Positions 1,869 through 51,796 of a DNA stretch of 64,000 bases are shown one piece after another. The position numbers and the translations under genes were made by a program. The notes beneath the pieces were generated by a model, which searched no databases, had not been told where the DNA came from, and was given only the letters and a program-made list of their open reading frames with translations. Source of the DNA: Escherichia coli (GTDB lineage Bacteria > Pseudomonadota > Gammaproteobacteria > Enterobacterales > Enterobacteriaceae). The stretch lies in assembly GCF_050920415.1 (NCBI RefSeq), contig NZ_CP169309.1. One strand, 5' to 3'. How positions within the stretch are numbered: the stretch's first letter is position 1; each line of letters opens with the position of its first letter.

Positions 1869-3185
1869 TTACGCGAATGCCGCCATGCTGGCTTTCATGG
1901 TGTACACCTCAACCAGCGTGTTGGTGTACTCCTCCAGATAACGGTCGTAGTTGGCGTTATAGGTATCGGTAAGCTGATCGCCTTCGTCCTGAATTTTGCT
2001 CATCTGATCGTCAATGTTCTGCTGGCGCAGGGTGATGATGCCGTTGCTGGAGTCCGTGTAGGTGTTAATCAGATCGTCCATCTGTGCCACCATGCTGTTG
2101 TCGCCAACGAAAATAGAGGTCAGACCGTCAGGATTTTTCGCCATTTCGTCGTTGAACTGGTCGGAGTCAATCTGTAAGTGGCCGTGAGAATCAAGCGTGA
2201 TGCCATAGTCAACAATCGACACCCCGTTGTAGCTGGCATGGGCGATATCATCGAGCTGGTTCGCCAGTGAGCTGAGTCCGGCATCACCCGCAAATACCCC
2301 GGCGCTGGTACTGTCATCACCGTGGGTGGTCAATGAATCAACCGTATCAATCAAGGTGTTATAGGCATCAACAAAGGTCTGTACTTTCTCCTGGCTGGCG
2401 CTGGAATCTTCGCTGATGTTAAAGGTAGTGAGATCGCTGTCAGAATCGCTGACTTCGGTAAAAGTCATGGTGACGCCGGGGATCACATCATCAAAGGTGT
2501 TGCTGCTATTGGTGATGGCGGGCCCCGTGGCACTGCCGAGATGAATAATCGCGTCCTGAGCGGAGGAAACATCCGTAGCAACGGGCGCGCTGGCGCTGTC
2601 GTTGCTGGCATCATGCCCCGTTACGCTCACCGAAAACGCGCTCTGCGCCCCGGTGCTATCCGAGGTGAGCATAATGGTGGTGGTGCCATCGGTTTTTACC
2701 AGTGCCGCTGAAACGCCGGGGTTATCGTCAGAGTCGTTAATCGCATTCACCAGCTCGCTGGCGTCGATAAAACCGTCGCCGTCACCGTTCTGATCCGCCG
2801 CCGCCAGGTCGATATCCATGGTGCTGTCGCCCATCGTCAGCTCGAAGGTGCCGGTAGCGGAAAAGGCGTCGTCGCCCATACTGAACGTGGTCTGCTGCCC
2901 CTGCGCCAGTTGCTCAACGAAAAATGAGTAGCTTCCCGCCTGTGCCTGCGAGTTAGCGGAAACGGTCGCTGAGTCATTATTGCTGGTGGCGGCAAATGTT
3001 ACCGGGCCGTCGGTATCGCTGTTCAGCGCATCGACGGCACTTTGAAAGTCGCTCAACGCCGAGCTGAGCGTATCCAGGCCGCTGCTTTCGGCATCCAGCT
3101 CCGTTTGCTTCTCCTGCAAATTTGCCGCCTGAGTGGCGACATCCGCATAAGCGATTTCCTGGGCAATAGTTCTTGGGTTAATCAT
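1869..3185 (-). CDS. lafB: Flagellar filament cap protein FliD-like (HAP2)
   Basis: 438 aa; N-terminal coiled-coil, Ser/Thr/Asp-rich central region and C-terminal helical segment typical of FliD; sits between the flagellin and FliS-like genes. Confidence 0.85.
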   Translation of the reverse strand: MINPRTIAQEIAYADVATQAANLQEKQTELDAESSGLDTLSSALSDFQSAVDALNSDTDGPVTFAATSNNDSATVSANSQAQAGSYSFFVEQLAQGQQTTFSMGDDAFSATGTFELTMGDSTMDIDLAAADQNGDGDGFIDASELVNAINDSDDNPGVSAALVKTDGTTTIMLTSDSTGAQSAFSVSVTGHDASNDSASAPVATDVSSAQDAIIHLGSATGPAITNSSNTFDDVIPGVTMTFTEVSDSDSDLTTFNISEDSSASQEKVQTFVDAYNTLIDTVDSLTTHGDDSTSAGVFAGDAGLSSLANQLDDIAHASYNGVSIVDYGITLDSHGHLQIDSDQFNDEMAKNPDGLTSIFVGDNSMVAQMDDLINTYTDSSNGIITLRQQNIDDQMSKIQDEGDQLTDTYNANYDRYLEEYTNTLVEVYTMKASMAAFA

Positions 3186-3364
3186 TGATGACTCCGGTTA
3201 ACGATGTCAGGTTATTGGCAAAAGGCGTGCCAATATTTTTTATGTTAATAATCAATAATTTGAAAAATGGGCGGAAAGCGTGTTTCCGGTTCGGCGGAAA
3301 AGTGCCTGCCGCAAAAAGCACAACACCGCCCGCAGGCGGTATTGAGACTGATGACAAACGCAAC

Positions 3365-3466
3365 ACTGCCTGATGCGCTGCGCTTATCAGGCCTACAAGG
3401 TTTCTGCAATATATTGAATTTGCAATATTTTGTAGGCCGGATAAGGCGTTCACGCCGCATCCGGCA
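3365..3466. repeat. BIME: two inverted REP palindromes downstream of the flagellin gene
   Basis: gcctgatgcgctgcgcttatcaggcctac … gtaggccggataaggcgttcacgccgcatccggca; classic E. coli REP sequence. A near-identical pair with the same linker occurs at 24050-24152. Confidence 0.75.
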
Positions 3467-4874: not shown

Positions 4875-5717
4875 ATGAGTATTATTATCAACAACTGGCG
4901 GATGGACCCGTCACTCAATGCCTTAATACATTGCGAAACGGGTGAAACACGTCGTCTCGGCGAATACCATTTTATTTTGCTGGAAACATTAGCAAAAAAT
5001 GCCGATGTGGTTTTATCGCGATCTTATTTATGTGCCGAAGTATGGAAGAACCGCATTGTCGGCGGTAACAGCCTGCCGACGGCGATCCATGCGTTGCGCG
5101 TTGCTATCGACGATGATGGCAAACAACAGAACATTATCAAAACCATCCCGAAAAAAGGTTACTTGTGCAATAAAGAGTATGTGTCTTTGCCGGAATCATC
5201 GCCTGCGGAAAAGCTGATGATTACCGACCAGGTACAGAAAACTGTGCCAGAAAAGATATCTTCGACAACACCGCCTTTACCTGGTAGAAAAAAATATAAA
5301 GAAATGATAGGGCTGGCGTTGAGCGCAGCTGTTATTTTTGTTGGCTCGACCGTGGGCTATTCACACTTGAAAAGTACACCTGACGCCCCGCAACTGGTAA
5401 AAGAGTCAATTAACAGTCCAAGAATAAAAATATTTCATTTAACTTCTGCTGGAGAAAATACTTCCGTACCGTTACTATCACAAACCCTCGCACCAGGAAA
5501 AGACAAACTCGATAATTTATTGTCAGCGCATAATATGACAATGACAACCTATTATAAATATGTTCGTAACCGACTGGAGAGTGATATTGTTCTGCGCAAC
5601 CAGTGCAATGGTAGCTGGCAATTAACCTTTAATGTGGAAGGCTGGCAGAACAGTGATATTAATAGCACGATGTATCAGAATTTAGAGAAGTTGTTAAATA
5701 CTGTGCAGAAGTGCTGA
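4875..5717 (+). CDS. lafZ: ToxR/CadC-like membrane-anchored winged-helix transcriptional regulator (LafZ position)
   Basis: 280 aa; N-terminal OmpR/PhoB-type winged-helix-like region, one hydrophobic span (…IGLALSAAVIFVGSTVGYSHL…), then a C-terminal domain; AT-rich upstream region. Confidence 0.55.
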   Translation: MSIIINNWRMDPSLNALIHCETGETRRLGEYHFILLETLAKNADVVLSRSYLCAEVWKNRIVGGNSLPTAIHALRVAIDDDGKQQNIIKTIPKKGYLCNKEYVSLPESSPAEKLMITDQVQKTVPEKISSTTPPLPGRKKYKEMIGLALSAAVIFVGSTVGYSHLKSTPDAPQLVKESINSPRIKIFHLTSAGENTSVPLLSQTLAPGKDKLDNLLSAHNMTMTTYYKYVRNRLESDIVLRNQCNGSWQLTFNVEGWQNSDINSTMYQNLEKLLNTVQKC

Positions 5718-15769: not shown

Positions 15770-15799
15770 ACGCTAAGCAATCGCTGTGCCAATTTTTAA

Positions 15800-16558
15800 G
15801 TGACTGATGAGAAAGGGTTTATGAGGTTTCAATTTTGCAGGCGGAAGTTGTATTTCCTCCTGGCGCTGGCCTTACCGGGCTACGCCGCCGTCCATCCCGT
15901 GCAACATAGCGCGCGGGAACAAATCAACGCCCAGGTGCTGAATGCCGCGAGCCAGCAGATTGAATCGCTGGCGCAACAGCGGCAGTGGCATGACTATCGC
16001 TACACCTTTAAGGTCTACATTCCCTCGCAGATTGCGACCGCCGCGCCCTGCGCTACGGCCCCCGGCGTCACGCTGACGTCGCCTGCGGAAATCGCTCTCA
16101 ACCGGATGAACTTCACCGTCAGTTGCCCGCAAAGCTGGCAGATGAACGTTGCGGTGCGCCCGGATGTTCTGGTGCCGGTGGTGATGGCGAAGTCACTGGT
16201 TGCCCGCGATACGCCGCTCACGGCAAATGATGTGGAGCTGAAGCCCTACAACGTCAGCGCCCAGCGGCGGGATGTGCTGATGGATCTCAATGAAGCGATT
16301 GGTTTAAGCAGCAAACATGCCCTGCAACCAGGCAGGCCGCTTACCAAAGAAGAACTGGTTTCGCCAGTGCTGATCGAGCGCGATCAGCCGGTGATGATTG
16401 TTTACCAGAGCGCGGGGATCACCGCCTCGATGCCCGGCGTGGCGCTGAAAAATGGTCGCAAAGGGGAAATGGTGAAAGTACGTAACGCCAGCAGCCAGCG
16501 GGTCATTAGCGCGATGGTGGCCGAAAGCGGCGTGGTGACAACGGTAAGCGCGGAGTAA
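15800..16558 (+). CDS. lfgA: P-ring assembly chaperone FlgA-like
   Basis: 252 aa with signal peptide (…LLALALPGYAAVHP…), divergent from flgB. Alternative start at 15821. Confidence 0.8.
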   Translation: MTDEKGFMRFQFCRRKLYFLLALALPGYAAVHPVQHSAREQINAQVLNAASQQIESLAQQRQWHDYRYTFKVYIPSQIATAAPCATAPGVTLTSPAEIALNRMNFTVSCPQSWQMNVAVRPDVLVPVVMAKSLVARDTPLTANDVELKPYNVSAQRRDVLMDLNEAIGLSSKHALQPGRPLTKEELVSPVLIERDQPVMIVYQSAGITASMPGVALKNGRKGEMVKVRNASSQRVISAMVAESGVVTTVSAE

Positions 16559-16704: not shown

Positions 16705-18171
16705 ATGAGTGATACTGTATCACCAATAAGACCTATGGGGGATGCTATGTCTGAATTTGAATTACTCGTGAAAGATCTTCTTTTAAAATCAGAAGAAGAC
16801 GAGAAAAAGCGACAAGAAAAAGATCGAGAATTAATTTCAAAGGTCCTTGAAATCTATGATCAAAAATATGTTGCAGAACTCTTACGAAAACTAGGAAAAA
16901 ATGAATGGAGCAGAGAAACACTTAACCGTTGGATAAATGGTAAGTGCAATCCTAAGCAATTAACTTCTGCGGAGGAAACTTTACTCCGCAAGATGCTTCC
17001 AGAACCTCCTGAACATCATCCTAACTACACATTTCGTTTTATTGATTTATTCGCAGGGATTGGTGGTATTCGTAAAGGTTTCGAAAACATTGGTGGACAG
17101 TGTGTTTTTACCAGCGAATGGAATAAAGAAGCGGTAAGAACCTACAAAGCTAATTGGTTTAATGATGAACTAAATCATAAATTTAATCTTGATATACGAG
17201 AAGTCACTTTAAGTGATAGAGATGATGTTTCCGAAGTAGAAGCCTATAATCATATAGACAAAAATATTCCAGATCATGATGTCCTTCTGGCCGGTTTTCC
17301 ATGTCAGCCCTTTAGTCTGGCTGGGGTAAGCAAGAAAAACTCTCTGGGGCGTGCACATGGTTTTGAATGTGAGGCACAAGGAACACTATTTTTTGATGTC
17401 GCTCGGATTATTAAATCAAAAAAACCAGCTATTTTTGTGCTTGAGAATGTGAAAAACCTTAAAAGTCATGATAAAGGTAAGACTTTTAAAGTCATCATGG
17501 AAACACTCGATGAATTAGGATATGAAGTCGCCGATGCTGGTGTTACTGGCTCAGATGATCCCAAAATTATAGATGGAAAACATTTTTTACCCCAACATCG
17601 TGAGCGTATAGTGTTGGTAGGATTTCGTAGAGATCTGAATATTCACAAGGATTTCACGTTACGAAACATTAACCGCTTTTACCCTCAAAACAGGCCAACA
17701 TTTGGTGAATTATTAGATCATGATGTTGACGATAAATATATTTTGACTCCAAGGTTATGGGAATATCTTTACAATTATGCAAAAAAACATGCAGCAAAAG
17801 GCAATGGGTTTGGTTTTGGTTTAGTGGATCCTAAAAATCCAGATAGTATCGCAAGGACTCTGTCTGCTCGTTATCATAAAGATGGCTCTGAAATATTGAT
17901 TGATCGTGGCTGGGATAAGGCTGTCGGTGAAATTGACTTTAGTAATCCAGCGAATCAAGAGCATCGTCCAAGAAGACTGACACCTCACGAATGTGCCAGG
18001 CTAATGGGTTTTGAAAAACCAGGGGGAAGACCTTTTAGAATACCTGTATCGGATACACAAGCCTATAGACAATTTGGGAACTCAGTTGTTGTTCCAGTAT
18101 TTGAAGCTGTAGCAAGATTACTAGAACCATATATACAAAAGGCAGTCAATATGCATATTATTAACGATTAA
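16705..18171 (+). CDS. DNA (cytosine-5)-methyltransferase, Dcm/M.EcoRII-like (predicted CCWGG specificity)
   Basis: C5-MTase motifs read directly: [11 protein letters not shown] (motif I), [11 protein letters not shown] (motif IV), ENVKNL (motif VI), [10 protein letters not shown] (motif X). Overall layout closely parallels E. coli Dcm as I recall it. AT-rich gene. Confidence 0.9.
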
Positions 18172-18193
18172 TAATAATTAATTTTCACTATTG

Positions 18194-18216
18194 TGAGGCC
18201 TTTTTATTAAAGGCCT
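18194..18216. terminator. Hairpin between the convergent methyltransferase and endonuclease genes (candidate bidirectional terminator)
   Basis: gaggccttt-ttatt-aaaggcctc: 9-bp perfect stem with 5-nt loop in an AT-rich spacer. Confidence 0.6.
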
Positions 18217-18257
18217 CTAAATATATAATCATGAGTTTTTACAAGTATGTTTTTATA

Positions 18258-19463
18258 TTATACAAAATCTTCATAAAGCGTTATTAACTGTGTAATAAAA
18301 CCATCTAATGTTAATATTTCCTCCCTGATTTCCTCCGGGTATTTTTTATGAAGAGGGGAAGGTACAACCAAGGTGACACCTTCAGCTCTCATTTCGTTAA
18401 ATTGAGCAACAGAGACACCCTCTTGCAAGGTAAACAAATATATCTTGTTGATTTTATTTGCTTCATTAAGCGCCTGTCGCCACCGATCCTTACATGTTGT
18501 TTTTACAGCAAGCATACGGAGTTTTTCTCTTGGAAAGTGATCATCATGGTAAGCTGCCGCTGATGGGAAAAGAAAATCGGGTTTCTTTTTTCCTTCAGTA
18601 ATACATTGAGTAGCAAAATGATGCAGTCCATGCTCAATAAAAATTTGCTCAAGATGTAGCTCCAGTGATTTCCCGGCTCGAGATTTTCTTCTATTACTAA
18701 CAGAGTTAGCCATAGCTATAAAATCATCTACAGAACCAAATCCTTGACGGATGATGTCCAGTACGTGAATTTCTTCAACCATTAGAAAGAGATCATATTC
18801 AATACGGCGGCGTTCTAAAAGTTGGTCATCTGGACTGGTTACGCCTGTTGGGTAATAACCTGCCGCATATTGGATAATATCTAAGCCAGAAGGAAAACTA
18901 TGTTTCCAGCTTTCCGGAATAACATATTCCTTTTGAGAGATTTTTGGCCTTGATGCGAGTACACCAAGTATTTCACTGGCAGGCCCAAACATTAAAGTTC
19001 CTGGAATGATCTCCCCAACAGCTGATTCCAGTACATCCTCTTCTTCTGGGCTTACACAAACCCATACATCAACACTTTTGCTGTCTCTCCCAGGCTCATG
19101 TTCAAACGCAAGCACAGACAAAGCACCTGTATTTTCCGGATCTTGTAGGGGACTGCCAGCCCCCCACCGAGTGATACGTTTTTCATTTCTTGTTTGCCCG
19201 AAATACTTATTATTGTAGTAAATAGCGCGAACCTCACTGTCTACACATTCATGAGAGGAATAAGTTGCGCGCAATAAAACCGAAGGATTTTTTTCTGACG
19301 TATGATCTATAGATGGGAAAAGTTCACCGACGATACCGGAAGGGATATATACCCCCACTTGATGCCCTCCTGTTGCACCAGTGTCGTTTGCTGAAAGACG
19401 TTTGATATAGAGATAATTGTTACCACCGACCTTATCAAGCAGCCAATCTTGTAATCCTGACAT
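18258..19463 (-). CDS. Type II restriction endonuclease, EcoRII-like
   Basis: 401 aa, convergent with the Dcm-like MTase. N-terminal …YIKRLSANDTGATGGHQVGVYIP… and overall length match my recollection of R.EcoRII (~400 aa, two-domain). Not verified by alignment. Confidence 0.75.
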   Translation of the reverse strand: MSGLQDWLLDKVGGNNYLYIKRLSANDTGATGGHQVGVYIPSGIVGELFPSIDHTSEKNPSVLLRATYSSHECVDSEVRAIYYNNKYFGQTRNEKRITRWGAGSPLQDPENTGALSVLAFEHEPGRDSKSVDVWVCVSPEEEDVLESAVGEIIPGTLMFGPASEILGVLASRPKISQKEYVIPESWKHSFPSGLDIIQYAAGYYPTGVTSPDDQLLERRRIEYDLFLMVEEIHVLDIIRQGFGSVDDFIAMANSVSNRRKSRAGKSLELHLEQIFIEHGLHHFATQCITEGKKKPDFLFPSAAAYHDDHFPREKLRMLAVKTTCKDRWRQALNEANKINKIYLFTLQEGVSVAQFNEMRAEGVTLVVPSPLHKKYPEEIREEILTLDGFITQLITLYEDFV

Positions 19464-20353: not shown

Positions 20354-20440
20354 CGCGAATACCTTCCCCATAGCGGAAACGGATTTTCCGCCTGATTTCC
20401 AATCCTTTGTTTTTGATTAAAAAAATTCCCGGCACGCTTA

Positions 20441-21409
20441 TTGCACATCCTGCACAGCATTAAAGACTGGAAGCCACCTATGAGTTTTATTGAATGTTAC
20501 GAACCGGAATATGCGCGCAATTTTATGGCGCAATATCCCGATTCGCCTTTATACGTCCGCAAGGTGTGGAAGAATGAGATTCGCCAGAGCCTGGCATTGA
20601 CCGATATTGCCAGTTGCAAAGCAGTGCTCAACAATGCCAGGGCCTTTGAATTACAGCTTACCTATCGCCCTGTGGAAGAAAATGCCGCAGCGCTATCTGC
20701 GCGCGATGCGATAGTAAACCAGATAATTTTGAGCACCCTCACGCTCCCGGATTTAACCCCAGAGCTTTCACTGTATGCCGTCGGGATTTTGCTCTCCCGC
20801 GCCAGTAAAATGCCGGGCAGAGACGGCGACACTCTCGCCCGGCTGACAGCACTGCCGCAGGCGCTGGCCGATCACGCACAAAAAGGCACGTTACAGGCAC
20901 AGTTCGCACAGCTACCGCCTGTGCCACAGCTGGCGCGCCAACTGGTGACGCTGCTCGGGAGTTTTGCGTTTGACTGGTCGATTCTGCCGAAAAGCCCGCG
21001 CAAAGCCTCACTGCCGTTGCAGGTTACCTTGCTGACGCTGCACGACGCCAACAGCGAAGCCCTGTTGCAGCAGCAGCTTCAGACACAGTGGCAAACTACC
21101 TGGCAACAGCATTTTGCCACCGCGCCGTGGATGATGCGTAACTGGCTAATTTACCGGGTTTATCACGATGTGATTGGCCAGGCAGACGGGGCGGATTATT
21201 TCCCGCTGGTGTGCGATTTTTACCTCATCCGCACGTTAATCAGTTTATGGACGCTGGATGATTCACCGCTGCGGCAGGAGGATATTTTCGCCCTCTTCGC
21301 GGTGTTTGAACGCTGGCGAACCAGTGAAAATGCCGTGCTGATTCGCCAGCAAATTCAGTCATTATGTGCCGCCGACCCGCTGCTTTCAGCGTTTTCGTTG
21401 CTGACGTGA
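20441..21409 (+). CDS. Hypothetical protein (GC-typical), function unknown
   Basis: 322-aa ORF downstream of flgN (alternative start 20480, MSFIECYEP…); no motif I can assign. Confidence 0.5.
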   Translation: MHILHSIKDWKPPMSFIECYEPEYARNFMAQYPDSPLYVRKVWKNEIRQSLALTDIASCKAVLNNARAFELQLTYRPVEENAAALSARDAIVNQIILSTLTLPDLTPELSLYAVGILLSRASKMPGRDGDTLARLTALPQALADHAQKGTLQAQFAQLPPVPQLARQLVTLLGSFAFDWSILPKSPRKASLPLQVTLLTLHDANSEALLQQQLQTQWQTTWQQHFATAPWMMRNWLIYRVYHDVIGQADGADYFPLVCDFYLIRTLISLWTLDDSPLRQEDIFALFAVFERWRTSENAVLIRQQIQSLCAADPLLSAFSLLT

Positions 21410-21428
21410 GTCGCTCTGTGCGCGCTTT

Positions 21429-21545
21429 GCCCTCACCCCGGCCCTCTCCCACAGGGAGAGGGAGAAACCCTGCGCCCAATTCAGCACCGCGCTCGATCGG
21501 TCCCCTCGCCCCTTCGGGGAGAGGGTTAGGGTGAGGGACATCAGC
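21429..21545 (-). repeat. Copy C (inverted) of the composite palindromic intergenic repeat
   Basis: gccctcaccccggccctctcccacagggagagggagaaa … ccttcggggagagggttagggtgaggg; reverse complement aligns with copies A and B. Confidence 0.8.
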
Positions 21546-21596
21546 GCGCGCATTCAGCACCTCCATCACATTCACCCACTAACTCACCCAAACACC

Positions 21597-24041
21597 ATGC
21601 CAACACCAAGCATCATCAAAACACTCGCCACCCACCGCGAAAAACCGTTCGTCAGCGTCGTCACGCCAACATGGAACCGCGGCGCATTCCTCCCGTACCT
21701 GCTCTATATGTACCGCTATCAGGACTACCCGGCAGACCGCCGCGAACTGGTCATCCTTGACGACTCGCCGCAAAGCCATCAACACATCATCGACCGCCTG
21801 ACCAATGGCACGCCGGAAGCCTTTAACATCCGCTACATCCATCACCCGGAAAAACTGCCGCTGGGAAAAAAACGCAATATGCTCAACGAACTGGCGAGCG
21901 GCGAATATATCCTCTGCATGGATGACGACGACTACTACCCGGCAGATAAAATCTCTTACACCATCGCCATGATGCAAAAACACCGGGCGCTGATCTCCGG
22001 TTCCGACCAGATCCCCATCTGGTACAGCCATATCAACCGCATCTTTCAAAGCCGCAGCTTTGGCCCGCGTAACATCCTCAACGGCACCTTTTGTTATCAC
22101 CGTAACTACCTGAAAAAGCACCGTTACAATGACGATTGCAATTTAGGCGAAGAGAAAAGTTTCACCGACAATTTCAGCGTAAACCCGCTGCAACTGCCCG
22201 GCGAGCGCACGATTTTGTGTATTTCGCATAGCCACAACACCTTTGATAAAGACTTTATTCTCGGGGCCAGCACGCCAGTAAACGCGGCGCTTACGGATAT
22301 CGTCACCGATCCGCTGCTCCGCAATGCTTATCTGAGTCTGCATAACGCCACGCATCACCAGGGGATCAACCATCAGGCGATCTATCAGATCGTTCTGCTG
22401 AATCTGGATAAACGCCCGGATCGTTTACGGCAGATCCGTGAAGAGCTGGCATTGCTGCATATTCCGCCTGAAAAAATTACCCGCCTTGCCGCCTGTGAAG
22501 ATGAAAACGGTCAACGGGGCCGCCGCCTGTCGCACTTGCAGGCGCTACGCCTGGCGCAACAGCACGGCTGGCAAAACTATCTGCTGCTGGAAGATGACGC
22601 GGTTATTCTCAAGCAGGAGAAACATATTCAGGTGCTGAACACGCTGCTGGCGAGCCTGGCGAAAATTCCCTGGCAGGTGATGATCCTCGGAGGCGAAATT
22701 TCGCAAGGAACAATGCTAAAAAGCCTGCCGGGGCTGGTGCACGCGCAGGACTGCCGCAAAGTGTGCGCTTATCTGGTGAACAGCCGGTACTACCCACAAC
22801 TGGCGCAGCAGATGAGTAACGATGAGCACTCGCTGGAAGACGGCTGGCAGCCACTGCTGCGTGCCGACAAATGGCTGGCCTGTTACCCGAGCCTTAGTTA
22901 TCAGCGACCGGGCTTTAGCGATATCGAGAAAAAAGCGACTGATAACATTAACCACTACTTCAATAAGTTACCCGTAGCCACCAAGCCATCTACATTACCT
23001 ATCGCCGACACCATCGGCTTTTTAATGGAAACCTCATTCCACTACGCGCTCTATCGCCCAATCATCACCGCTCTACAGGCGCAGGGGCAGAGCTGCACGC
23101 TGGTGATCAACGACCGCGTGTTTAAACCGTTTCTGGATGAAATGCTGGAGACGCTAAAAACCATCGACGATCCGCAGCTCAAAGGTATGCGCTTGTCTGA
23201 GATGCAGGCACACGGTCAGCGGGTGAAATGCCTGGTCAGCCCCTACCACACGCCCGCGCTCAATGGCCTGGCAGCGGTGAACATCCGCGCTATGTACGGC
23301 TTAGCCAAAGAAACGTGGAACCACGCCGACTGGAACCGTTTTTATCAGCGCATTTTGTGTTATAGCCACTACAGTCAGCAGGCGCTGGCGCATTTCGGCA
23401 GCGCAAAAGTGGTCGGCAATCCACGCTTCGACGCCTGGCATAACGGCACGTTCGACCGTGCGTTGCCGGAAAATATCCAACCAGATTACCGTAAACCTAC
23501 GGTGCTCTACGCCCCAACATTTGGCGCATTAAGCTCCCTGCCCCACTGGGCAGAAAAATTGGGCCGCTTAAGCGGTGATGTGAACCTGATTTGCAAACTG
23601 CACCACGGTACCTGCTCGCGCCCGGAAGAAGCCGCATCGCTGACCCTGGCACGCAGGCATTTAAAGCAGAGCACCGACTCCGCCCGTCACACGCTGGCGA
23701 TGCTGGCAAAAGCCGATTACGTGCTCACCGATAACAGCGGCTTTATTTTCGATGCTATCCACGTTGATAAGCGGGTGATCCTGCTCGACTTTCCGGGCAT
23801 GACGGAACTGCTCGACGGTGAGAAAAGTTATTCCACACCGGAGAGCGCCGACCAGCGAATCCGCGAAATATTACCGGTGGCTCATGATATGGCTGAGCTG
23901 CGTTACTTATTGTCAGAGGCGTTTGACTGGGGGGCGGTACAGGCGCGGCTTACGGAGATTCGCCATCACTATTGTGACGCGTTTATGGATGGCAAGGCGG
24001 GAGAACGGGCGGCGATGGTGGTTGTGGAGGCATTGGGGTAA
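21597..24041 (+). CDS. Large multidomain glycosyltransferase (GT2-like N-terminus, GT25-like centre, TagB/TagF-like C-terminus); candidate flagellin-modification enzyme
   Basis: N-terminus …VSVVTPTWNRGAFLPYLL…ILDDSP… (GT-A fold); central …LLNLDKRPDRL…LLEDDAVI… (GT25-like); C-terminus …YAPTFG…KLHH…VLTDNSGFIFDA… resembling CDP-glycerol glycerophosphotransferases. Start taken at ATG 21597; the ORF extends back to 21531 across repeat C. Confidence 0.65.
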   Translation: MPTPSIIKTLATHREKPFVSVVTPTWNRGAFLPYLLYMYRYQDYPADRRELVILDDSPQSHQHIIDRLTNGTPEAFNIRYIHHPEKLPLGKKRNMLNELASGEYILCMDDDDYYPADKISYTIAMMQKHRALISGSDQIPIWYSHINRIFQSRSFGPRNILNGTFCYHRNYLKKHRYNDDCNLGEEKSFTDNFSVNPLQLPGERTILCISHSHNTFDKDFILGASTPVNAALTDIVTDPLLRNAYLSLHNATHHQGINHQAIYQIVLLNLDKRPDRLRQIREELALLHIPPEKITRLAACEDENGQRGRRLSHLQALRLAQQHGWQNYLLLEDDAVILKQEKHIQVLNTLLASLAKIPWQVMILGGEISQGTMLKSLPGLVHAQDCRKVCAYLVNSRYYPQLAQQMSNDEHSLEDGWQPLLRADKWLACYPSLSYQRPGFSDIEKKATDNINHYFNKLPVATKPSTLPIADTIGFLMETSFHYALYRPIITALQAQGQSCTLVINDRVFKPFLDEMLETLKTIDDPQLKGMRLSEMQAHGQRVKCLVSPYHTPALNGLAAVNIRAMYGLAKETWNHADWNRFYQRILCYSHYSQQALAHFGSAKVVGNPRFDAWHNGTFDRALPENIQPDYRKPTVLYAPTFGALSSLPHWAEKLGRLSGDVNLICKLHHGTCSRPEEAASLTLARRHLKQSTDSARHTLAMLAKADYVLTDNSGFIFDAIHVDKRVILLDFPGMTELLDGEKSYSTPESADQRIREILPVAHDMAELRYLLSEAFDWGAVQARLTEIRHHYCDAFMDGKAGERAAMVVVEALG

Positions 24042-24367: not shown

Positions 24368-25189
24368 ATGACTTCTGATAAAAAAGTAACTTCCGGTACG
24401 ACAAGCCAGAAACAAAACAACATTGTCACTCAAAAAATATCACGCCAGAAGGAATTGTTTCTATTATTTTGGGTTGATGAGTCCGATGATAGCCGACGTT
24501 CTATTTTTGAAGAAGCATGTCTGACGCGTTATTTCAATATCCTTTATTCCCCCGAGTATAAAAAAGAAACACAGATAGTTTATCATTTATCAATTAACAC
24601 ATTTAATCAAATCAAAGAAATATTAGAAATCTTTATAAACAAGAATGGAGGTAAAACTAAAGCAAAGGTTAAAGAAGTCAGTTTATTCTCACATGGGGGG
24701 CCAATTCATGGTCCTACAACCTCAAACTCTATAAATACACCTTCCGTGCCTAAATACCCACAACAAATGGACATATCCGGAGGATGGGATTCAATTGATT
24801 TTAACTGGTCAAACAATGCTATGTTTGTTATGTATGGTTGTCGCACTAGTTATGCAAGTGATGATTCAGGACAAGGTTTTGCCAGTAAATTATCCCTATT
24901 AGATAATTTTAAGGACGTGAATGTCTGGGGTCAAACAGAAAGTACTTATCCATCTTATTTCCCAGATATCAGGACAACGTCGATTATGAGGTCAATAAAT
25001 ATAGGTTGGTCTTTTTCACCAACATATATGGTTGCCAATTCTGAAGGTCAAGGATGGGATGCATTATTCCCGGATAATCGAAATCCATTAAAAGCTCTCC
25101 CTATGCAGTGTTATAATAATGGGACATTGATTTTAACCTGCGATCAAAGCAATTTTAATGATCACCGGAAGAATAAATCAAATGATTAG
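24368..25189 (+). CDS. Hypothetical protein with a caspase-like (clan CD peptidase-type) His…Cys dyad; AT-rich
   Basis: 273 aa; hydrophobic strand + SHG (VSLFSHGGP, His109) and, 49 residues later, hydrophobic strand + GC (AMFVMYGCRT, Cys158), the arrangement of caspase/CHAT-type catalytic dyads. Inferred by eye only. No signal peptide. Confidence 0.45.
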   Translation: MTSDKKVTSGTTSQKQNNIVTQKISRQKELFLLFWVDESDDSRRSIFEEACLTRYFNILYSPEYKKETQIVYHLSINTFNQIKEILEIFINKNGGKTKAKVKEVSLFSHGGPIHGPTTSNSINTPSVPKYPQQMDISGGWDSIDFNWSNNAMFVMYGCRTSYASDDSGQGFASKLSLLDNFKDVNVWGQTESTYPSYFPDIRTTSIMRSINIGWSFSPTYMVANSEGQGWDALFPDNRNPLKALPMQCYNNGTLILTCDQSNFNDHRKNKSND

Positions 25190-25721
25190 CATTGTATTGA
25201 GAAGCTTTATTTTATTATTCATAATAATAGTGTATCCGGATTATAATAAAAACCCACCTGCCTTTGAAGTATATGGGGAAAATGACATACTTAAGGATAT
25301 GGTTATTAATATGAAAACTTATAGATACCATAGTAAGGAAAACTCTTCCCCCACAGCTATAGTGCAAACCATCCTTTTTAAAGGAAATATACAGCAAGTT
25401 TTTGAAAGCAATGACATGGGTGGTGCGAGCTTCTTTTTTTCTTATAATAATAAGGTTGAAACGCTGGTAACAGACGCTTTCTTTTTAAATAAAAAATTAG
25501 ACAAACTGCATGATGCAAATATTTTTGAGGTTATAAAGCATAAGGAAAACATCGTTATTAGATATTACAAGTGCAAAATTGAATATATGCAAAGAGAAAA
25601 ATTTATCGAAATAGAGATATCAACAAACAAAAATAGTTATTTTAACAAGAATGGAATAAAACAAAAAGATACAAATAAATATAACACATATTTCTTCAAT
25701 TACTTTGAGTCTCAAAAATAA
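25158..25721 (+). CDS. Hypothetical small membrane-anchored protein, partner of the upstream gene; AT-rich
   Basis: 187 aa; N-terminal hydrophobic segment (ISIVLRSFILLFIIIVY), Lys/Asn-rich remainder; overlaps the upstream gene (alternative start 25182 gives an 8-nt overlap). Confidence 0.45.
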   Translation: MITGRINQMISIVLRSFILLFIIIVYPDYNKNPPAFEVYGENDILKDMVINMKTYRYHSKENSSPTAIVQTILFKGNIQQVFESNDMGGASFFFSYNNKVETLVTDAFFLNKKLDKLHDANIFEVIKHKENIVIRYYKCKIEYMQREKFIEIEISTNKNSYFNKNGIKQKDTNKYNTYFFNYFESQK

Positions 25722-31251: not shown

Positions 31252-31593
31252 TTAGATCGACATACTCATCAGATCGTTAAATCCGGTGGCGATTTTGTTG
31301 CGCACCTGCACCAGCGCGGAGAAAGAAAGCGACGCCTGCTGGCTGGCGATCATCGCCCCGGCGAGGTCATCACTTTTGCCCGTGTCGACAGCCGTTTGCT
31401 GCTGCTCCGCCACCTGCTGGAACTGGTCAACGTGACCGAGCGCGCCGGACATAATGCGATTAAACGACACGTCCGGGTCGGTGGAACTGAAGGTCATGGC
31501 GGGTAGCACTGGCGCCTGGGCGTTGGCCTGCATCCGCTGCACGTCCTGCATAATTTGCGCCTGCATGGTGCTGTTGATTGTGGTAATGCTCAT
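31252..31593 (-). CDS. lfiE: Flagellar basal-body protein FliE-like
   Basis: 113 aa; C-terminal …ASQQASLSFSALVQVRNKIATGFNDLMSMSI typical of FliE. Confidence 0.8.
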   Translation of the reverse strand: MSITTINSTMQAQIMQDVQRMQANAQAPVLPAMTFSSTDPDVSFNRIMSGALGHVDQFQQVAEQQQTAVDTGKSDDLAGAMIASQQASLSFSALVQVRNKIATGFNDLMSMSI

Positions 31594-31607
31594 TTTTAAC
31601 TTCCGGG

Positions 31608-32594
31608 TCAGGAGAAAACTTCGATACCGTGCTTGCGCATGGAGGCCAGTCGATAGCGCAGGGCGCGCGGGGTAATGCCTAACAAGTCGGCGATTTTGCT
31701 GCGGTTGCCCTGATATTTACGCATCAGGTCGGCGATATATTGATACTGCGCGCTTCGTCCGTGCTGGCCTAAATCACCGGTTTCGGCAATGTGGACGGCG
31801 GGCTGAACAGGCCATTGCAGATCGCTGTGGTCTGCAATATCGGTGTCCGGCAGGCCTAATGCATCCGGGTAAATTACGCCGTCGCGATTTAAAATCATTC
31901 CCCGCTGAATGGCGTTTTCCAGTTGACGCACGTTACCGGGCCAGCGGTAATTAAGCAGCGCGCGGCGGGTGGATTCGGACAGGGTGATATTTTTCACCAG
32001 TACCGTTGAGTATTTTTTAATAAATGACTCTGCCAGCGGAATAATATCGTTCAGGCGTTCACGCAGTGGCGGCATGGTAATAGGGATAACCGCCAGACGA
32101 TAATAGAGATCTTCACGAAAACGTCCGGCGGCAACTTCCTGCTCCAGGTTTTTATTGGTGCAGGCAATCAGGCGAAAATTGAGTTTGATTTGTCGGTTGC
32201 TGCCTAATCGCTCAACCTGTTGTTCCTGCAACACGCATAATATTTTGGCCTGTAGCGCCAGCGGCATTTCACCAATTTCATCGAGTAATAAGGTGCCGTT
32301 ATTTGCCAGTTCCATTTTTCCTGGCACGCTGGCAATTGCGCCGGTAAATGCACCTTTGTCGTAGCCAAATAACGTCGATTCCAGCATATTTTCCGGGATC
32401 GCCGCGCAGTTCACGCCGATATAGGGCGCATTATCATTTTCACCAAAGGCTACGGTGTGAATATATTTCGCCACGCACTCTTTCCCCGCGCCGGTTTCGC
32501 CCTGAATCAGGACCGGCACGTTAAAGGCGGCGACACGCTTTGCCAGAGTAAAAGCGTTTATGCTGGAGGCGGCAGATGCAATAAGTTCAGACAT
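31608..32594 (-). CDS. lafK: Sigma-54-dependent transcriptional activator LafK-like (AAA+ domain plus C-terminal HTH; no N-terminal receiver domain)
   Basis: 328 aa; Walker A GETGAGKE, GAFTGA sigma-54 contact motif, Fis-type HTH at the C-terminus. An in-frame stop 25 codons upstream of the ATG excludes an N-terminal extension. Confidence 0.85.
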   Translation of the reverse strand: MSELIASAASSINAFTLAKRVAAFNVPVLIQGETGAGKECVAKYIHTVAFGENDNAPYIGVNCAAIPENMLESTLFGYDKGAFTGAIASVPGKMELANNGTLLLDEIGEMPLALQAKILCVLQEQQVERLGSNRQIKLNFRLIACTNKNLEQEVAAGRFREDLYYRLAVIPITMPPLRERLNDIIPLAESFIKKYSTVLVKNITLSESTRRALLNYRWPGNVRQLENAIQRGMILNRDGVIYPDALGLPDTDIADHSDLQWPVQPAVHIAETGDLGQHGRSAQYQYIADLMRKYQGNRSKIADLLGITPRALRYRLASMRKHGIEVFS

Positions 32595-32711
32595 AGGGTG
32601 AACAATATAAGTAGCGACAATAATCAGGATGTTCTGAAGCGTATCACCGGCGGGATTAACAAGTTTGAATTAAACGATAATAAAAATATTATTTCATTTT
32701 AAACAATGAGT

Positions 32712-32800
32712 TAGAGTCGTATGGCGGATAAGGTTTTTACGCCGCATCCGGCAATTGTGCACCGGTGCCTGATGCGACGCTGCGCGTCTTATCAGGCCTA
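32712..32800. repeat. BIME in the divergent lafK / fliM control region
   Basis: atggcggataaggtttttacgccgcatccggcaa … ggtgcctgatgcgacgctgcgcgtcttatcaggcctac. Confidence 0.7.
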
Positions 32801-32980
32801 CAGGGCGTGCAATGTTTTATGACGATGCCCGATATCTCACCCTTTAATAATTTAATTATTTTTTCACCCTATTAATAATTTGCCCCTTTCACGCCCCGTC
32901 TATTTAATACCTCACCTTGTGTCACTGCCGGAATTGCGTGCACAAAAACGCCCATACCATTACAGCAGAGAAAGTAAGCC

Positions 32981-33832
32981 ATGCTGAAGTACAGTAAAAC
33001 GCCAGGCATCTTTAAATTAGAAGGTAATCGGCTCGGACGCCCCTACCATCGCCTGCCGACCCTGTTTACGGGGAATTTTGACGTGATTGATTCGCATCTC
33101 GGCAGCTACTTTCTCAAAAAGCATCGCAGCAATATCACTTTAAAAAAGATTGGCTGCGAAATGGATATTATTAATAAAAACGCCGAGTTGATGGTTTCCC
33201 AAGTCGGGCATCTGGCATTTGATATCGATCGCTCCTTATTGTTAATGCTGCTGGGCAATTTTTATGGTCTGGAGTCTTCTCTTGAAGAGGCAAAAGCCCA
33301 TAATGGCCTGCCGACCAAAACCGAAACACGATTAAAGAACCGACTCGCGCTGGATATCTGCACGCTGATATTTAATCTGCAAACCTCCGGTATTGCGCTG
33401 AAATTAAAGCTGGACAGCAGCACGGTAATTACCCACTGGGCGTATCAATTAACCTTTACCCTCGCGGGCGATGAAGAGAGCCGTTTTCGTATTTTGCTCG
33501 ACGATGCCCACACCGATTTTATTTTAAATCTGATCCGCCACAGTGAGCACAGTAAACCGCAGCAGGTGGCGAAATCCGTCAACAAGCCGGCACTGATTAA
33601 AGAGATCATCCGCTCTCTGCCGTTGACCCTGAACGTCAAAATCGCCGAGCTGTCGATGAATGTTGCCGATCTGGCGCAGATAAAAGCCGGAGATATTTTA
33701 CCCATCTCGCTGGGAGAAACGTTCCCGGTGGCGATTGGGCAATCTGAATTATTTAGCGCCCTGATTGTGGAAGACAAAGACAAACTGTTTTTGTCGGAGC
33801 TGGCGGGCAAAAATGAGAATAGCCATGAGTAA
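32981..33832 (+). CDS. lfiM: Flagellar motor switch protein FliM-like
   Basis: 283 aa; C-terminal FliN-like SpoA region (…AGDILPISLGETFPVAIGQSELFSALIVEDKDKLFL…). Confidence 0.85.
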   Translation: MLKYSKTPGIFKLEGNRLGRPYHRLPTLFTGNFDVIDSHLGSYFLKKHRSNITLKKIGCEMDIINKNAELMVSQVGHLAFDIDRSLLLMLLGNFYGLESSLEEAKAHNGLPTKTETRLKNRLALDICTLIFNLQTSGIALKLKLDSSTVITHWAYQLTFTLAGDEESRFRILLDDAHTDFILNLIRHSEHSKPQQVAKSVNKPALIKEIIRSLPLTLNVKIAELSMNVADLAQIKAGDILPISLGETFPVAIGQSELFSALIVEDKDKLFLSELAGKNENSHE

Positions 33833-39241: not shown

Positions 39242-39302
39242 TGACACCATTAATTGACGTCACACTGCAAAGAGACTACGATGACACCATACAATGACGT
39301 CA
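39242..39302 (+). promoter_or_regulatory. Two direct copies of a 21-bp palindrome-containing motif plus a sigma-70-like promoter upstream of the HicA-like gene (candidate operator)
   Basis: tgacaccattaattgacgtca (39242-39262) and tgacaccatacaatgacgtca (39282-39302), each with TGACGTCA; -35 TTGACG at 39254-39259 and -10-like TACGAT at 39277-39282 (17-bp spacer). The second copy overlaps the -10 and ORF start. Confidence 0.45.
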
Positions 39303-39593
39303 TGGATTGATAGTATGATTAAGGTCAGCGCGCTAGGCTCTCGTCATAGAAAAACATTCGACGATGTAATGACGGAGCCGCCAAAATCTGGAATTAAATG
39401 GGATGATGTTGTTGCTCTCATTAAAGCGGTGGGTGGATCAATAAAAAATAACAACGGCTCCAGACGAAAATTTCAGATTGGAACGACCAAATTCAGCACA
39501 CATGAGCCGCATCCAAAGAATGTGATGGATAAAGGCGCAGTAGCAGGTCTTAAGGAGTGGTTTGTTAACTGTGTAGGGGTAGATTATGAATAA
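39294..39593 (+). CDS. HicA-like toxin (mRNA interferase family), putative
   Basis: 99-aa ORF (alternative start 39315); C-terminal half (…NGSRRKFQIGTTKFSTHEPHPKNVMDKGAVAGLKEW…) resembles the HicA pattern as I recall it; 8-nt overlap with the downstream gene. Confidence 0.45.
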   Translation: MTSWIDSMIKVSALGSRHRKTFDDVMTEPPKSGIKWDDVVALIKAVGGSIKNNNGSRRKFQIGTTKFSTHEPHPKNVMDKGAVAGLKEWFVNCVGVDYE

Positions 39594-39942
39594 AGCATCG
39601 AACATTATCACAATTAAAGGTCAACCAGCCGCAGTGACATTTGAAGCCGATATCAACGCATTTCGCGGCAAGTTCCTCAATGTAAACGGTTATTGTGACT
39701 TTGTAGCCACAAGTATTGAGGCATTATATCGTGAAGGCGAAAGCGCTCTGGATGAGTGGATGGCGGATTGTGAAGAGGACGGTATTGCCCCTTTTCGTGA
39801 AGAAGAAGAGCAAAAACGCCTGACGCTTCGTGTGCCGCATCACATCGATTCGCGGCTGACCATCGTCGCCAGACAACATTCCATTTCAAAAAACCAGCTC
39901 ATTATTGATGTCTTAGAACGTGAGTTTTCAGCCCAGATGTAA
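39586..39942 (+). CDS. HicB-like antitoxin with C-terminal ribbon-helix-helix, putative
   Basis: 118 aa; N-terminal HicB/UPF0150-like region and C-terminal RHH-like segment (…KRLTLRVPHHIDSRLTIVARQHSISKNQLIIDVLEREF…). Confidence 0.55.
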   Translation: MNKASNIITIKGQPAAVTFEADINAFRGKFLNVNGYCDFVATSIEALYREGESALDEWMADCEEDGIAPFREEEEQKRLTLRVPHHIDSRLTIVARQHSISKNQLIIDVLEREFSAQM

Positions 39943-42589: not shown

Positions 42590-42729
42590 GGTCGGATGCA
42601 GCGTGAACGCATTATTCGGCCTACGGTTCGGGTACAGATTTGTAGGCATGATAAGACGCGTCAGCGTCGCATCAGGCATCAGCGCACAAGTGCCGGATGC
42701 GGCGTAAACGCCTTATCCAGCCTACGCCA
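42590..42729. repeat. BIME with three REP palindromes
   Basis: gtcggatgcagcgtgaacgcattattcggcctac … gtaggcatgataagacgcgtcagcgtcgcatcaggca … gccggatgcggcgtaaacgccttatccagcctac. Confidence 0.75.
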
Positions 42730-49904: not shown

Positions 49905-51796
49905 GCGTTAAGTGAGTAGGCCACCGGAACCTCCCCGACAGCCTCTCGCAGAACCGTACGTGAAACTCTCGCTTCATACGGCTCCCGTCAGGCAAACGCG
50001 CTTCCTGGTCCTGCTTTCCAGTGGGCAAACAACTCCGGCTTCTCTTTTGACAGCCTTTCCATTAGCTGACACGCCTTCGTCTTTCTATACCGCAGGGTTT
50101 TATATTTCTTTCTCGCCCACGCAATCAGCGTCAGATTAATATATCTGCATACTTTCTTCATCGCTGATTTGTGGTATCTCGCGTAATAATTCAGCCACCC
50201 CGATATTATCGGATTCAGCCACTTCGCAATATCTTCGAGACTCATCTCCACCCTGCGTCTGATCCACAGTTTCCTGAGTTTTCCAATCATGCCTTTCTGC
50301 GCACGGTTACTCGCCGCCGGGCTGAAACTCGTAAAGAGGTTTCCCCGCCGGTGGTTACGTGCTCTTCGCGCTCTGAACGTATACCCCAGAAAATCAAACT
50401 GCACTGTTTCATGGTTCGCCTGTCGTTCGCTGTCTTTGCAGTAAACTACTTTCGTTTTCTCCGGATGTAATTCCAGTCCACATTCCTGAAAACGTTTTGC
50501 CAGCTTATTCAGTAATTCCTCTGCCTGTTGTTTACTGCCACAATGAATTAATCCATCATCTGCATAACGGCACAGGGAATTTCCGGATAATGTAACGTCA
50601 GCCATTTATCAAACACATAGTGCAGAAATAAATTCGCCAGTACCGGGCTGATGACTCCACCCTGTGGCGTACCTTTATTTCTTTCCTTCAGTGTTCCATC
50701 CGGCATCTGCACCGGCGCTGTCAGCCACCGGCGAATAGACAGTCTTACCCATTTATCCGCACAATGTTTATCTACTGCCCTGAGTAATAAATCGTGGGAG
50801 ATATTATCGAATAACCCTTTAATATCAAACTCAAGACACCAGTCGTATTGCCAGCAACGTTTTCTGGTGACTGCTATTGCATCCAGCGCTGATTTTCCAT
50901 GCCGGTATCCGTATGAATCATTCAGGAAATAACGCTCCACTAATGGTTCAAACGTTACCAGCACCGTCATCTGCGCTATTCGATCGCTTACTGTCGGTAT
51001 TCCTAAAAGTCTTTTGCTGCCATCCTTCTTCGGAATTTCCACCGCACGCACTGGCGGCGGCATCCAGCTTCCCGACGATAACCTGTTCCAGATTTTGTAC
51101 AGATTTCCTTTCAGATCCCGCTCAAAATCTTTCAGCGTCTGGTTATCCACTCCGGCAGCTCCGGCATTCGCCTTTATCCGCCGGTACGCTTCCACCACAT
51201 GCAATTTACTGACCTGAAACGGTTTTGTCTGTTCACACACAGCCTCCTCCTGCCTACAGTTGGGCTGTGATGCAGACTGCCCGACGCTGTCCCTTCGCTC
51301 CACGTTCATTACAAACGCTTCCTCACTACTACGAACAGCTCTGCCCCGGTTTCGCACATCGATACTCTCATACTCATAATTTCGGTTATTTGTATTTCTC
51401 TCTTGAAATTGCGACGACCGGTTCCCGTAGTTCCTGCAAAGAGCCTGATACAGCGTCATGCCTGCTATACACCGGACACCATTCACGCAGCATTCGGAAT
51501 TCACCCGTAAATTAATCCCGGCGGTATCACGAAACCTCCGGTTTTGATGTCACTTAGGACTAACGACGTTTCAACACAGGTTCGGGTTTACTCATCTCAC
51601 TGTATCTCACATAGGATCAGATCTCGTCTGATCGTTCCCCCTGCGCTCACTACCATGGCTCTTTACCACAGCAGCCGGGGTTGTTTGGGACCGACTTCCG
51701 ACAGCAGATCCCGGTGGGCCTGCCACCATCTCTTCACAAGCTTATGCTTATTACATGCAAAACGTCCCGTTTTGCATCTTTGTGCCTACGGCACAC
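49905..51796 (-). mobile_element. Bacterial group II intron (about 1.9 kb)
   Basis: 5' end GTGTG on the minus strand (complement of cacac at 51792-51796); RT/maturase ORF; domain V-like hairpin gagccgtatgaagcgagagtttcacgtacggttc (complement of 49951-49984) just after the ORF stop. 3' boundary is approximate. Confidence 0.65.
49988..51309 (-). pseudogene. Group II intron reverse transcriptase/maturase, frameshifted
   Basis: RT motifs (…GIPTVSDRIAQ…, …TPQGGVISPVLANLFLHYVFD…) in ORF 50548-51504; YADD and maturase domain X (…GWLNYYARY…) in ORF 49988-50605. The two parts are in different frames. Confidence 0.7.

Follow-up and report, generated by a model that had tools for sequence, protein, structure and literature searches.

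The Flag-2 (lateral-type) flagellar locus of Escherichia coli contains a gene, lafK, for a sigma-54-dependent activator that appears to begin directly at its AAA+ domain, and this poses the question of whether such a protein is an intact regulator that does without a sensory input domain or what is left of a longer one and, if intact, where the decision to build the flagellum is taken. We have addressed this in a segment of 64,000 nucleotides of the E. coli chromosome (the window), which carries the Flag-2 locus adjoining yafL, dpaA and fadE. Positions 31400-33200, around lafK, are 99.9% identical to the same part of E. coli MFDS1022581, and the region is present near full length in 1270 of 5426 complete E. 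coli genomes, ST131 included, mostly at ~94% identity. In the RefSeq annotation of the matching genome the order starts with the genes from fliK to lafA, a winged-helix regulator, and flgL back to flgB; flgA lies divergent from flgL-flgB and is followed by an inserted restriction-modification pair, flgM, flgN and a glycosylation region, and then by fliJ back to fliE, the sigma-54 protein gene, and the divergent operon fliM-fliN-fliP-fliQ-fliR-flhB-flhA. The name lafK was reportedly given in the original Flag-2 paper of Ren et al. in 2005. It is the name used by De Maayer et al. 2020 (PMC6993521). The genes that matter most for what follows are these.

31608..32594, minus strand: lafK coding sequence, sigma-54-dependent enhancer-binding protein, 328 aa plus stop, 987 nt, ATG start
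31252..31593, minus strand: lfiE (fliE homologue), starting 14 nt past the lafK stop, with lfiFGHIJ next
32981..33832, plus strand: lfiM (fliM/fliN family), first gene of the divergent lfiMNPQR-lfhBA operon
4875-5717: LafZ, a Flag-2-specific ToxR-like membrane regulator

The layout suggests that lafK is the first gene of a single operon, lafK-lfiEFGHIJ. By Pfam scan, several of the Flag-2 genes are without known function. The same 987-nt lafK coding sequence is called by RefSeq/PGAP in the 99.9% identical genome and in the ~94% identical lineage, and it can be divided as follows, with the nearest upstream stop in its frame listed last.

32079..32579, minus strand: AAA+ sigma-54 interaction domain, residues 6-172 (Pfam PF00158, E=1.6e-63)
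32337..32354, minus strand: GAFTGA sigma-54 contact motif, residues 81-86, read from the sequence
31857..32063, minus strand: AAA_lid_14, the AAA+ lid, residues 178-246 (Pfam PF25601, E=6e-20)
31644..31745, minus strand: HTH_8, C-terminal Fis-type helix-turn-helix DNA-binding domain, residues 284-317 (Pfam PF02954, E=8e-9)
32670..32672, minus strand: in-frame TAA, 25 codons upstream of the lafK ATG

A first-pass annotation, which worked from the nucleotide sequence with no database searches, had described the reading frame as opening directly at the AAA+ domain, with an in-frame stop 25 codons upstream, such that no receiver or sensor domain could be encoded. Each part of this description is borne out. 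The Sigma54_activat match spans profile positions 3-167 of 168, starting at residue 6 of the protein, and Pfam finds no domain N-terminal to it. The 25 sense codons between the TAA and the ATG include no ATG, GTG or TTG, there are more stops past the TAA, and neither E. coli lineage has a sequence in which this frame is open. A tblastn search with six receiver domains against the upstream regions of E. coli, Citrobacter and Hafnia returned only noise, and the 386-bp lafK-lfiM region has no open reading frame with receiver similarity in any frame. Features by which bacterial enhancer-binding proteins are recognized are present, namely an AAA+ domain with Walker A (GETGAGKE), Walker B (LLLDEIG) and arginine fingers, a GAFTGA loop, and target promoters of the -24/-12 type. 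Enterobacterial LafK is a sigma-54 activator consisting of AAA+, lid and Fis-type DNA-binding domains only.

The short form is widespread. Orthologues 324-348 aa long, built from these three domains and with at most ~22 residues ahead of the AAA+ domain, are found in more than ten enterobacterial genera at 58-84% identity (Citrobacter, Leminorella, Enterobacter, Pseudescherichia, Scandinavium, Atlantibacter, Siccibacter, Budvicia, Pantoea, Hafnia, Regiella and Pragia among them). The first-pass annotation had proposed comparing LafK lengths between Flag-2 loci, reasoning that orthologues of the same length with a recognizable regulatory domain would mean that its domain limits were misjudged; the 324-348-aa forms have no such domain. 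The order of genes around lafK in Citrobacter and Hafnia matches that in E. coli. In an alignment of 17 sequences K38, N62, D105/E106, R160, R166 and R223 are invariant, as are G81, A82, T84 and A86 of the GAFTGA motif, with F83 and G85 nearly so. With dN/dS ratios of 0.083 (other E. coli lineage) and 0.048 (Citrobacter), lafK is a conserved gene under strong purifying selection, not a chance open reading frame. Four proteins with 60-73% identity that carry receiver or ACT domains (P0049, P0067, P0120 and P0079) were considered as full-length LafK and rejected as metagenome assembly chimeras, in which E. coli NtrC, TyrR or another regulator is joined to LafK at conserved motifs.

The window strain departs from its relatives at one residue.

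32235..32237, minus strand: codon 120, TGC (Cys), which is Arg in every relative, in the KLLRVLQE helix

Between 31400 and 33200 the sequence departs from the nearest genome at a single base, 32237, and this base accounts for the R120C change. The exact protein (P0513) occurs on 12 public contigs, so R120C is a real allele; it may weaken the activator.

A different architecture is found outside the enterobacteria. The lateral locus of Vibrio bivalvicida has fliP-fliN-fliM divergent from motY-lafK-fliE-fliF and encodes a LafK of 444 aa, and in Pseudaeromonas the order is flhA, lafK (459 aa), fliE. Lengths of 438-468 aa are seen across Vibrio, Photobacterium, Enterovibrio, Grimontia, Thalassotalea, Gallaecimonas, Pseudaeromonas and an Aeromonadaceae genome. 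These loci were not reached by every search: an exhaustive search of representatives returned so many generic activators that Vibrio LafK did not stand out, and the matches listed in an alignment-based genome scan were mostly to generic motifs (WPGNVR, NCAAIPE) and included one Vibrio LafK locus and several FlrC/FleR loci, with no Enterobacterales among them. The long form owes its additional ~120 residues to a degenerate receiver domain: a profile built from eight N-terminal sequences finds 7w9h, the structure of the FleR receiver, at E=7e-19, along with 276 further chains, and all eight of the N-termini tested match PF00072. Reading of the alignment indicates that the phospho-acceptor position is Ser or Ala in the Vibrio, Photobacterium and Thalassotalea proteins, that the Asp and the KPF lysine are kept in the Aeromonas-type and Gallaecimonas receivers, and that all eight long forms have Val where canonical receivers have a conserved Thr. 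Vibrio sequences taken singly fall below the Pfam cut-off for a receiver, the V. bivalvicida protein at 23.9-26 bits against 30.2.

The long and short forms are orthologous and alike in their AAA+ and HTH_8 core, in their position as the first gene before fliEFGHIJ (in V. parahaemolyticus and A. hydrophila as in E. coli), and in a near-identical recognition helix (RALRYRL against RALRYKL). They differ in that the former have a receiver-homologous N-terminus which enterobacterial LafK lacks entirely, giving it another domain architecture, and in the motY gene upstream of lafK in Vibrio, which is absent from the E. coli locus. LafK was grouped with PspF and HrpR/S as an activator without a signal-recognition domain by Francke et al. 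2011 (PMC3162934), a listing that is probably explained by the sub-cut-off scores of the Vibrio proteins. The claim is therefore already in print, and strictly it suits enterobacterial LafK better than Vibrio LafK.

The relationships of the core were examined in a neighbor-joining tree built on 316 AAA+/HTH columns. The short and the long LafK proteins each form a clade with 100% bootstrap support and the two are joined at 93%, with FleQ/FlrA in a separate clade (100%); together with synteny this confirms the assignment of the E. coli protein as LafK. The tree places LafK beside FlrC/FleR with weak support (15-64%), and this placement agrees with the ranking of solved structures, of which the nearest is the AAA+ domain of V. 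cholerae FlrC (4qhs, 253 bits, against 215 for FleQ, 210 for FlrA and 182 for PspF), as well as with the match of the long-LafK receiver to FleR. FlrC/FleR loci are also at the top among the genome matches listed, at 45-49% identity. As judged by these comparisons the LafK AAA+ core is nearest to the FlrC/FleR type of response regulator, not to FleQ or PspF. FlrC (V. cholerae) and FleR (Pseudomonas aeruginosa) are class III polar-flagellar response regulators with a canonical phosphorylatable receiver and an adjacent cognate kinase, FlrB or FleS; both of these are missing for the E. coli LafK.

The likeness to PspF and HrpR/S suggested by the first-pass annotation holds at the level of architecture, and the closest relatives in sequence are FlrC and FleR. 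E. coli PspF resembles LafK in having an AAA+ core, a C-terminal HTH and few residues before the AAA+ domain. It is nonetheless not an orthologue: LafK scores 233.4 on TIGR02974 (cut-off 443.55) and 203.3 on NF008622 (cut-off 529) in NCBIfam, and no pspA-like neighbor or psp operon is annotated in the 50 kb around lafK. HrpR and HrpS of Pseudomonas syringae, which govern a type III export apparatus, are sigma-54 activators that likewise lack a regulatory domain; they are regulated through their expression and by a partner protein, and they act as a hetero-hexamer of two paralogues, whereas E. coli Flag-2 encodes a single activator. FleQ and FlrA, the flagellar master regulators and sigma-54 activators with which LafK is usually compared in textbooks, differ in that LafK lacks the FleQ N-terminal domain and starts just past the LFRS position. 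The FleQ contacts to c-di-GMP, which are LFRS and the post-Walker-A Arg-Asn of KEVVARN, are absent in LafK, where the sequence is KECVAKY.

Flagellar activators without an N-terminal regulatory domain are also known from the fla1 system of Rhodobacter sphaeroides, in which fleT heads fleT-fliEFGHIJ and FleT, which lacks a DNA-binding domain as well, works together with FleQ. LafK, unlike FleT, keeps its HTH and is the sole activator in its locus. Two uncultured gammaproteobacterial loci (L003 and L010) have tandem domain-less activators before fliE, one FleQ-like and one FlrC-like, an arrangement that resembles the R. sphaeroides FleQ/FleT pair. These pairs indicate that receivers have been lost from flagellar activators more than once, and enterobacterial LafK probably lacks its receiver by loss, a single event at the base of enterobacterial Flag-2 being the simplest reading. 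We would put forward, tentatively and at rather less than even odds, the fuller proposal that enterobacterial LafK is a natural receiver deletion of an FlrC/FleR-derived regulator that is constitutively active on GGAAA-N5-TTTCC repeats. LafK would then exist in three states, with an Asp-keeping receiver (Aeromonas type), with a Ser/Ala receiver (Vibrio, Photobacterium), or with none (Enterobacterales), and in the last of these sensory input would have moved to lafK expression, possibly via LafZ.

To find candidate targets of LafK, the window was searched for sigma-54 promoters with the consensus TGGCACG-N4-TTGCW, the GG and GC being required. Three sites with at most one mismatch were found, against 0.27 expected, and all three lie directly upstream of Flag-2 operons.

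15776..15791, minus strand: TGGCACAGCGATTGCT, sigma-54 promoter before lfgB and a predicted target of LafK
3217..3232, minus strand: TGGCACGCCTTTTGCC, sigma-54 promoter before lafB, the fliD homologue
20430..20445, plus strand: CGGCACGCTTATTGCA, sigma-54 promoter before a 309-aa gene of unknown function and a family-2 glycosyltransferase gene

The lfgB promoter is conserved in six genera, and the lfgB and lafB sites were reported earlier for strain PCN033 (PMC4578781). For V. parahaemolyticus, RpoN-binding sites were predicted at flgB2, lafA and lafB and confirmed by EMSA for flgB2 and lafA (PMC9817140). A strict scan of the locus for sigma-28 promoters (TAAA-N14-16-GCCGATAA) gave none. Each of the three sigma-54 promoters is preceded by an inverted repeat, with distances counted from the -24 T.

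15843..15857: GGAAA-N5-CTTCC at lfgB, starting 66 nt ahead of the -24 element; predicted enhancer for LafK
3273..3287: GGAAA-N5-TTTCC at lafB, starting 55 nt ahead of the -24 element
20375..20389: GGAAA-N5-TTTCC at the glycosyltransferase operon, starting 55 nt ahead of the -24 element

GGAAA-N5-TTTCC occurs nine times in the 64-kb window when one mismatch is allowed, against 2.47 expected, and the promoter-linked repeats comprise both of the exact matches and one of the seven with a single mismatch. In the 94% identical E. coli lineage the half-sites are kept while the spacers have changed, and at lfgB the two halves have changed in a symmetrical way (GGAAG...CTTCC). Upstream of lfgB the combination of TGGCA(C/T)-N6-TTGC and the repeat is kept in Citrobacter, Leminorella, Pseudescherichia, Enterobacter and Cedecea, again with variable spacers. 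The exact repeat is absent from the lafK loci of Vibrio (L005) and Pseudaeromonas (L083), whose sequence excludes the flgB and lafB promoters. We propose that GGAAA-N5-TTTCC is the LafK enhancer; counting against it is the position of the repeat center, which at ~48-59 nt upstream of the -24 element is nearer than many enhancers.

The region between lafK and lfiM presents a different picture.

32595..32980: divergent lafK/lfiM control region, 386 bp, no sigma-54 promoter on either strand
32722..32798, plus strand: BIME/REP element (REP-derived Rfam family naRNA4, 65.3 bits with the gathering score at 59.5)

A matrix scan of 32595-32980, which the first-pass annotation had suggested, found no sigma-54 promoter, and a relaxed scan of 32560-33010 yielded sites with five mismatches only; sigma-54 promoters are likewise absent from the lafK-lfiM regions of Citrobacter (594 bp) and Hafnia (641 bp). 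This fits control of lafK at the level of transcription by another route. It agrees also with reports that the fliM(L) operon of V. parahaemolyticus is LafK-independent (PMC3930126) and that A. hydrophila lafK is a sigma-70 class I gene (PMC4481668). A sigma-70 scan of the region gave a single plus-strand consensus match, which is no more than chance, and no confident lafK promoter. The BIME noted in the first-pass annotation is genuine: it exceeds the naRNA4 gathering score, and E. coli genomes without the remainder of the locus have matches to 32718-32802 alone, at unrelated positions in the chromosome. It is present in both E. coli Flag-2 lineages, is absent from the Citrobacter and Hafnia intergenic regions, and is E. 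coli-specific.

We favor, with a probability of about 0.7, the reading that LafK is an input-free, constitutively active class II activator that acts via the GGAAA-N5-TTTCC repeats and is controlled through its own expression. Having no input domain, it would assemble and hydrolyze ATP whenever it is present; a LafK dimer would bind the repeats some 55-66 nt upstream of the -24 element and would open the class II sigma-54 promoters for lfgB to lfgL (rod, hook, rings), for the genes from lafB on (cap and chaperones, joined in full loci by the sigma-28 and stator genes), and for the glycosyltransferase operon. The decision to build Flag-2 would be taken upstream, in the transcription or translation of lafK from the sigma-54-free, BIME-bearing lafK-lfiM region. 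NtrC-type activators need a phosphorylated receiver for assembly, and removal of the receiver is not always activating; the AAA+ domain of FlrC alone forms heptamers, and it is because of this and of the conservation of the gene that LafK is expected to be constitutively active. Searches of the literature found no experiments on E. coli LafK, and its activity, oligomeric state and DNA target are accordingly predictions here.

Could lafK instead be a 5'-truncated, non-functional remnant of a longer response-regulator gene, in a flagellar system that is reported to be silent or degraded in E. coli? The Vibrio/Aeromonas-type orthologues are indeed ~120 aa longer, the BIME is inserted upstream of the gene, the window strain carries R120C at an invariant residue, and Flag-2 is silent in the ST131 strain EC958, no expressing condition having been found in the laboratory (PMC4637896). 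Yet the short form is common to more than ten genera at 58-84% identity with its catalytic motifs intact, dN/dS is 0.05-0.08, the target promoters and upstream repeats are conserved across genera, and there is no receiver remnant upstream, all of which argue for an old and maintained architecture and not for recent decay; we consider a remnant very unlikely. The silence of Flag-2 in EC958 under laboratory conditions also fits control upstream of LafK. A wrongly annotated start, with a regulatory domain supplied from upstream through a different frame, a frameshift or some unconventional initiation, is scarcely credible. In its favor, the lafK ATG has no evident Shine-Dalgarno sequence ahead of it in either E. 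coli or Citrobacter, but the frame is closed 25 codons upstream with no start codon in between, the 386-bp region holds a BIME and no receiver-like open reading frame in any frame, and the start is at the same position in the aligned Citrobacter protein and in the PGAP calls for two other E. coli genomes.

A further alternative is that LafK is intact but is inhibited or activated by a partner, much as PspF is controlled by PspA, HrpS by HrpV and FleQ by FleN, and does not respond simply to its abundance. Other known domain-less activators do work in this way, as the first-pass annotation had suggested, and the locus has several genes without known function that might supply such a partner. LafV is reported to repress surface-sensing genes in V. 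parahaemolyticus when LafK is present (PMC9303241). Against this, the annotation of the locus shows no homologue of PspA, HrpV or FlhG/FleN, the Pfam scan gave no candidate partner, and the FleQ contacts to c-di-GMP are absent. These are absences of evidence, and we regard partner control as unlikely. Control through the expression of lafK remains the reading that we prefer.

lafK is a known Flag-2 gene of a known architectural class, and the finding that it lacks a regulatory domain is correct and mostly confirms annotation and literature. The additions are modest: the contrast with the receivers of Vibrio and Aeromonas, the affinity to FlrC/FleR, and the conserved repeat, which is a testable candidate for the LafK binding site. 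Flag-2 is carried by about a quarter of complete E. coli genomes. If LafK is without an input domain, the on/off decision for this second flagellar system would have to lie in the 386-bp lafK-lfiM region or in the translation of lafK, and ectopic expression of lafK should suffice to switch on the class II genes.

The three sigma-54 promoters of the Flag-2 locus, upstream of lfgB, of lafB and of the gene for a 309-residue protein, share an inverted repeat that starts 55-66 nt upstream of each promoter. At lfgB the repeat is conserved in six genera, and it is a candidate enhancer for LafK. The features at and around these promoters are as follows.

3273-3287, 15843-15857 and 20375-20389: inverted repeat GGAAA-N5-TTTCC, one per sigma-54 promoter
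3178-3453: 91-aa 'hypothetical protein' (PGAP), between lafA and lafB
20430-24041: third sigma-54 promoter and downstream genes, for the 309-aa protein and then an 814-aa family-2 glycosyltransferase
24368-25721: two genes (273 aa and 187 aa) between the glycosyltransferase and cytidylyltransferase genes

The 91-residue open reading frame overlaps the lafB promoter and its repeat as well as a REP-like sequence (Rfam ES036/CssrF, 3389-3431), and is probably not a real gene. The 309-residue protein has no Pfam match. Because the third promoter drives a glycosyltransferase operon, flagellin modification genes appear to be included in the LafK regulon. Farther downstream, the 273-residue product has a weak DUF4347 match and the 187-residue product has no match; both genes are absent from the annotation of the other E. 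coli Flag-2 lineage (the 94% lineage, L086).

That lineage lacks the restriction-modification pair found here between lfgA and lfgM, which are separated there by a gap of 80 bp. This pair and other features in and around the locus are:

16705-19463: restriction endonuclease of the EcoRII type with its Dcm-type cytosine methyltransferase
39294-39942: HicA/HicB toxin-antitoxin pair, directly 3′ of lfhA at the Flag-2 edge
42645-42722: second naRNA4-type BIME, near lpcA
49911-51727, minus strand: group II intron RNA domains (Rfam RF00029, RF01999) on either side of an ORF region, amid ISAs1 and integrative-element remnants downstream of the flagellar locus

Over 31400-33200, the sole difference from the nearest genome, a 99.9% identical E. 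coli, lies at LafK residue 120 (codon 32235-32237), which is Cys here and Arg in all relatives examined (KLLRVLQE). The Cys120 allele is found on 12 public contigs and may lower LafK function. In E. coli (32595-32620) and Citrobacter the lafK start lacks a Shine-Dalgarno sequence, and in Hafnia there is only a far-off GAGG, suggesting that the activator would be weakly translated.

LafZ (4875-5717) begins with a winged helix of the OmpR type (residues 25-97), followed by a single hydrophobic segment (144-162) and a C-terminal part of about 118 residues, a layout like that of ToxR and CadC. Speculatively, LafZ is a candidate for the sensor that would act upstream of LafK, an activator that itself lacks an input domain.

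Two flagellar loci, one from a Steroidobacteraceae genome and the other from an unclassified gammaproteobacterium, each encode a tandem pair of activators that lack regulatory domains, immediately before fliEFGHIJ (L003, 4663-7038; L010, 2645-4969). One member of the pair clusters with FleQ/FlrA (100% bootstrap), the other near FlrC/FleR (64%). Four longer public metagenome proteins (P0049, P0067, P0120 and P0079; 462-521 aa) were rejected as full-length LafK, being assembly chimeras in which E. coli NtrC, TyrR or another regulator is joined to the LafK C-terminus at the conserved motifs FREDLYYRL, PPLRER and WPGNVR. Domain surveys could be misled by such chimeras.
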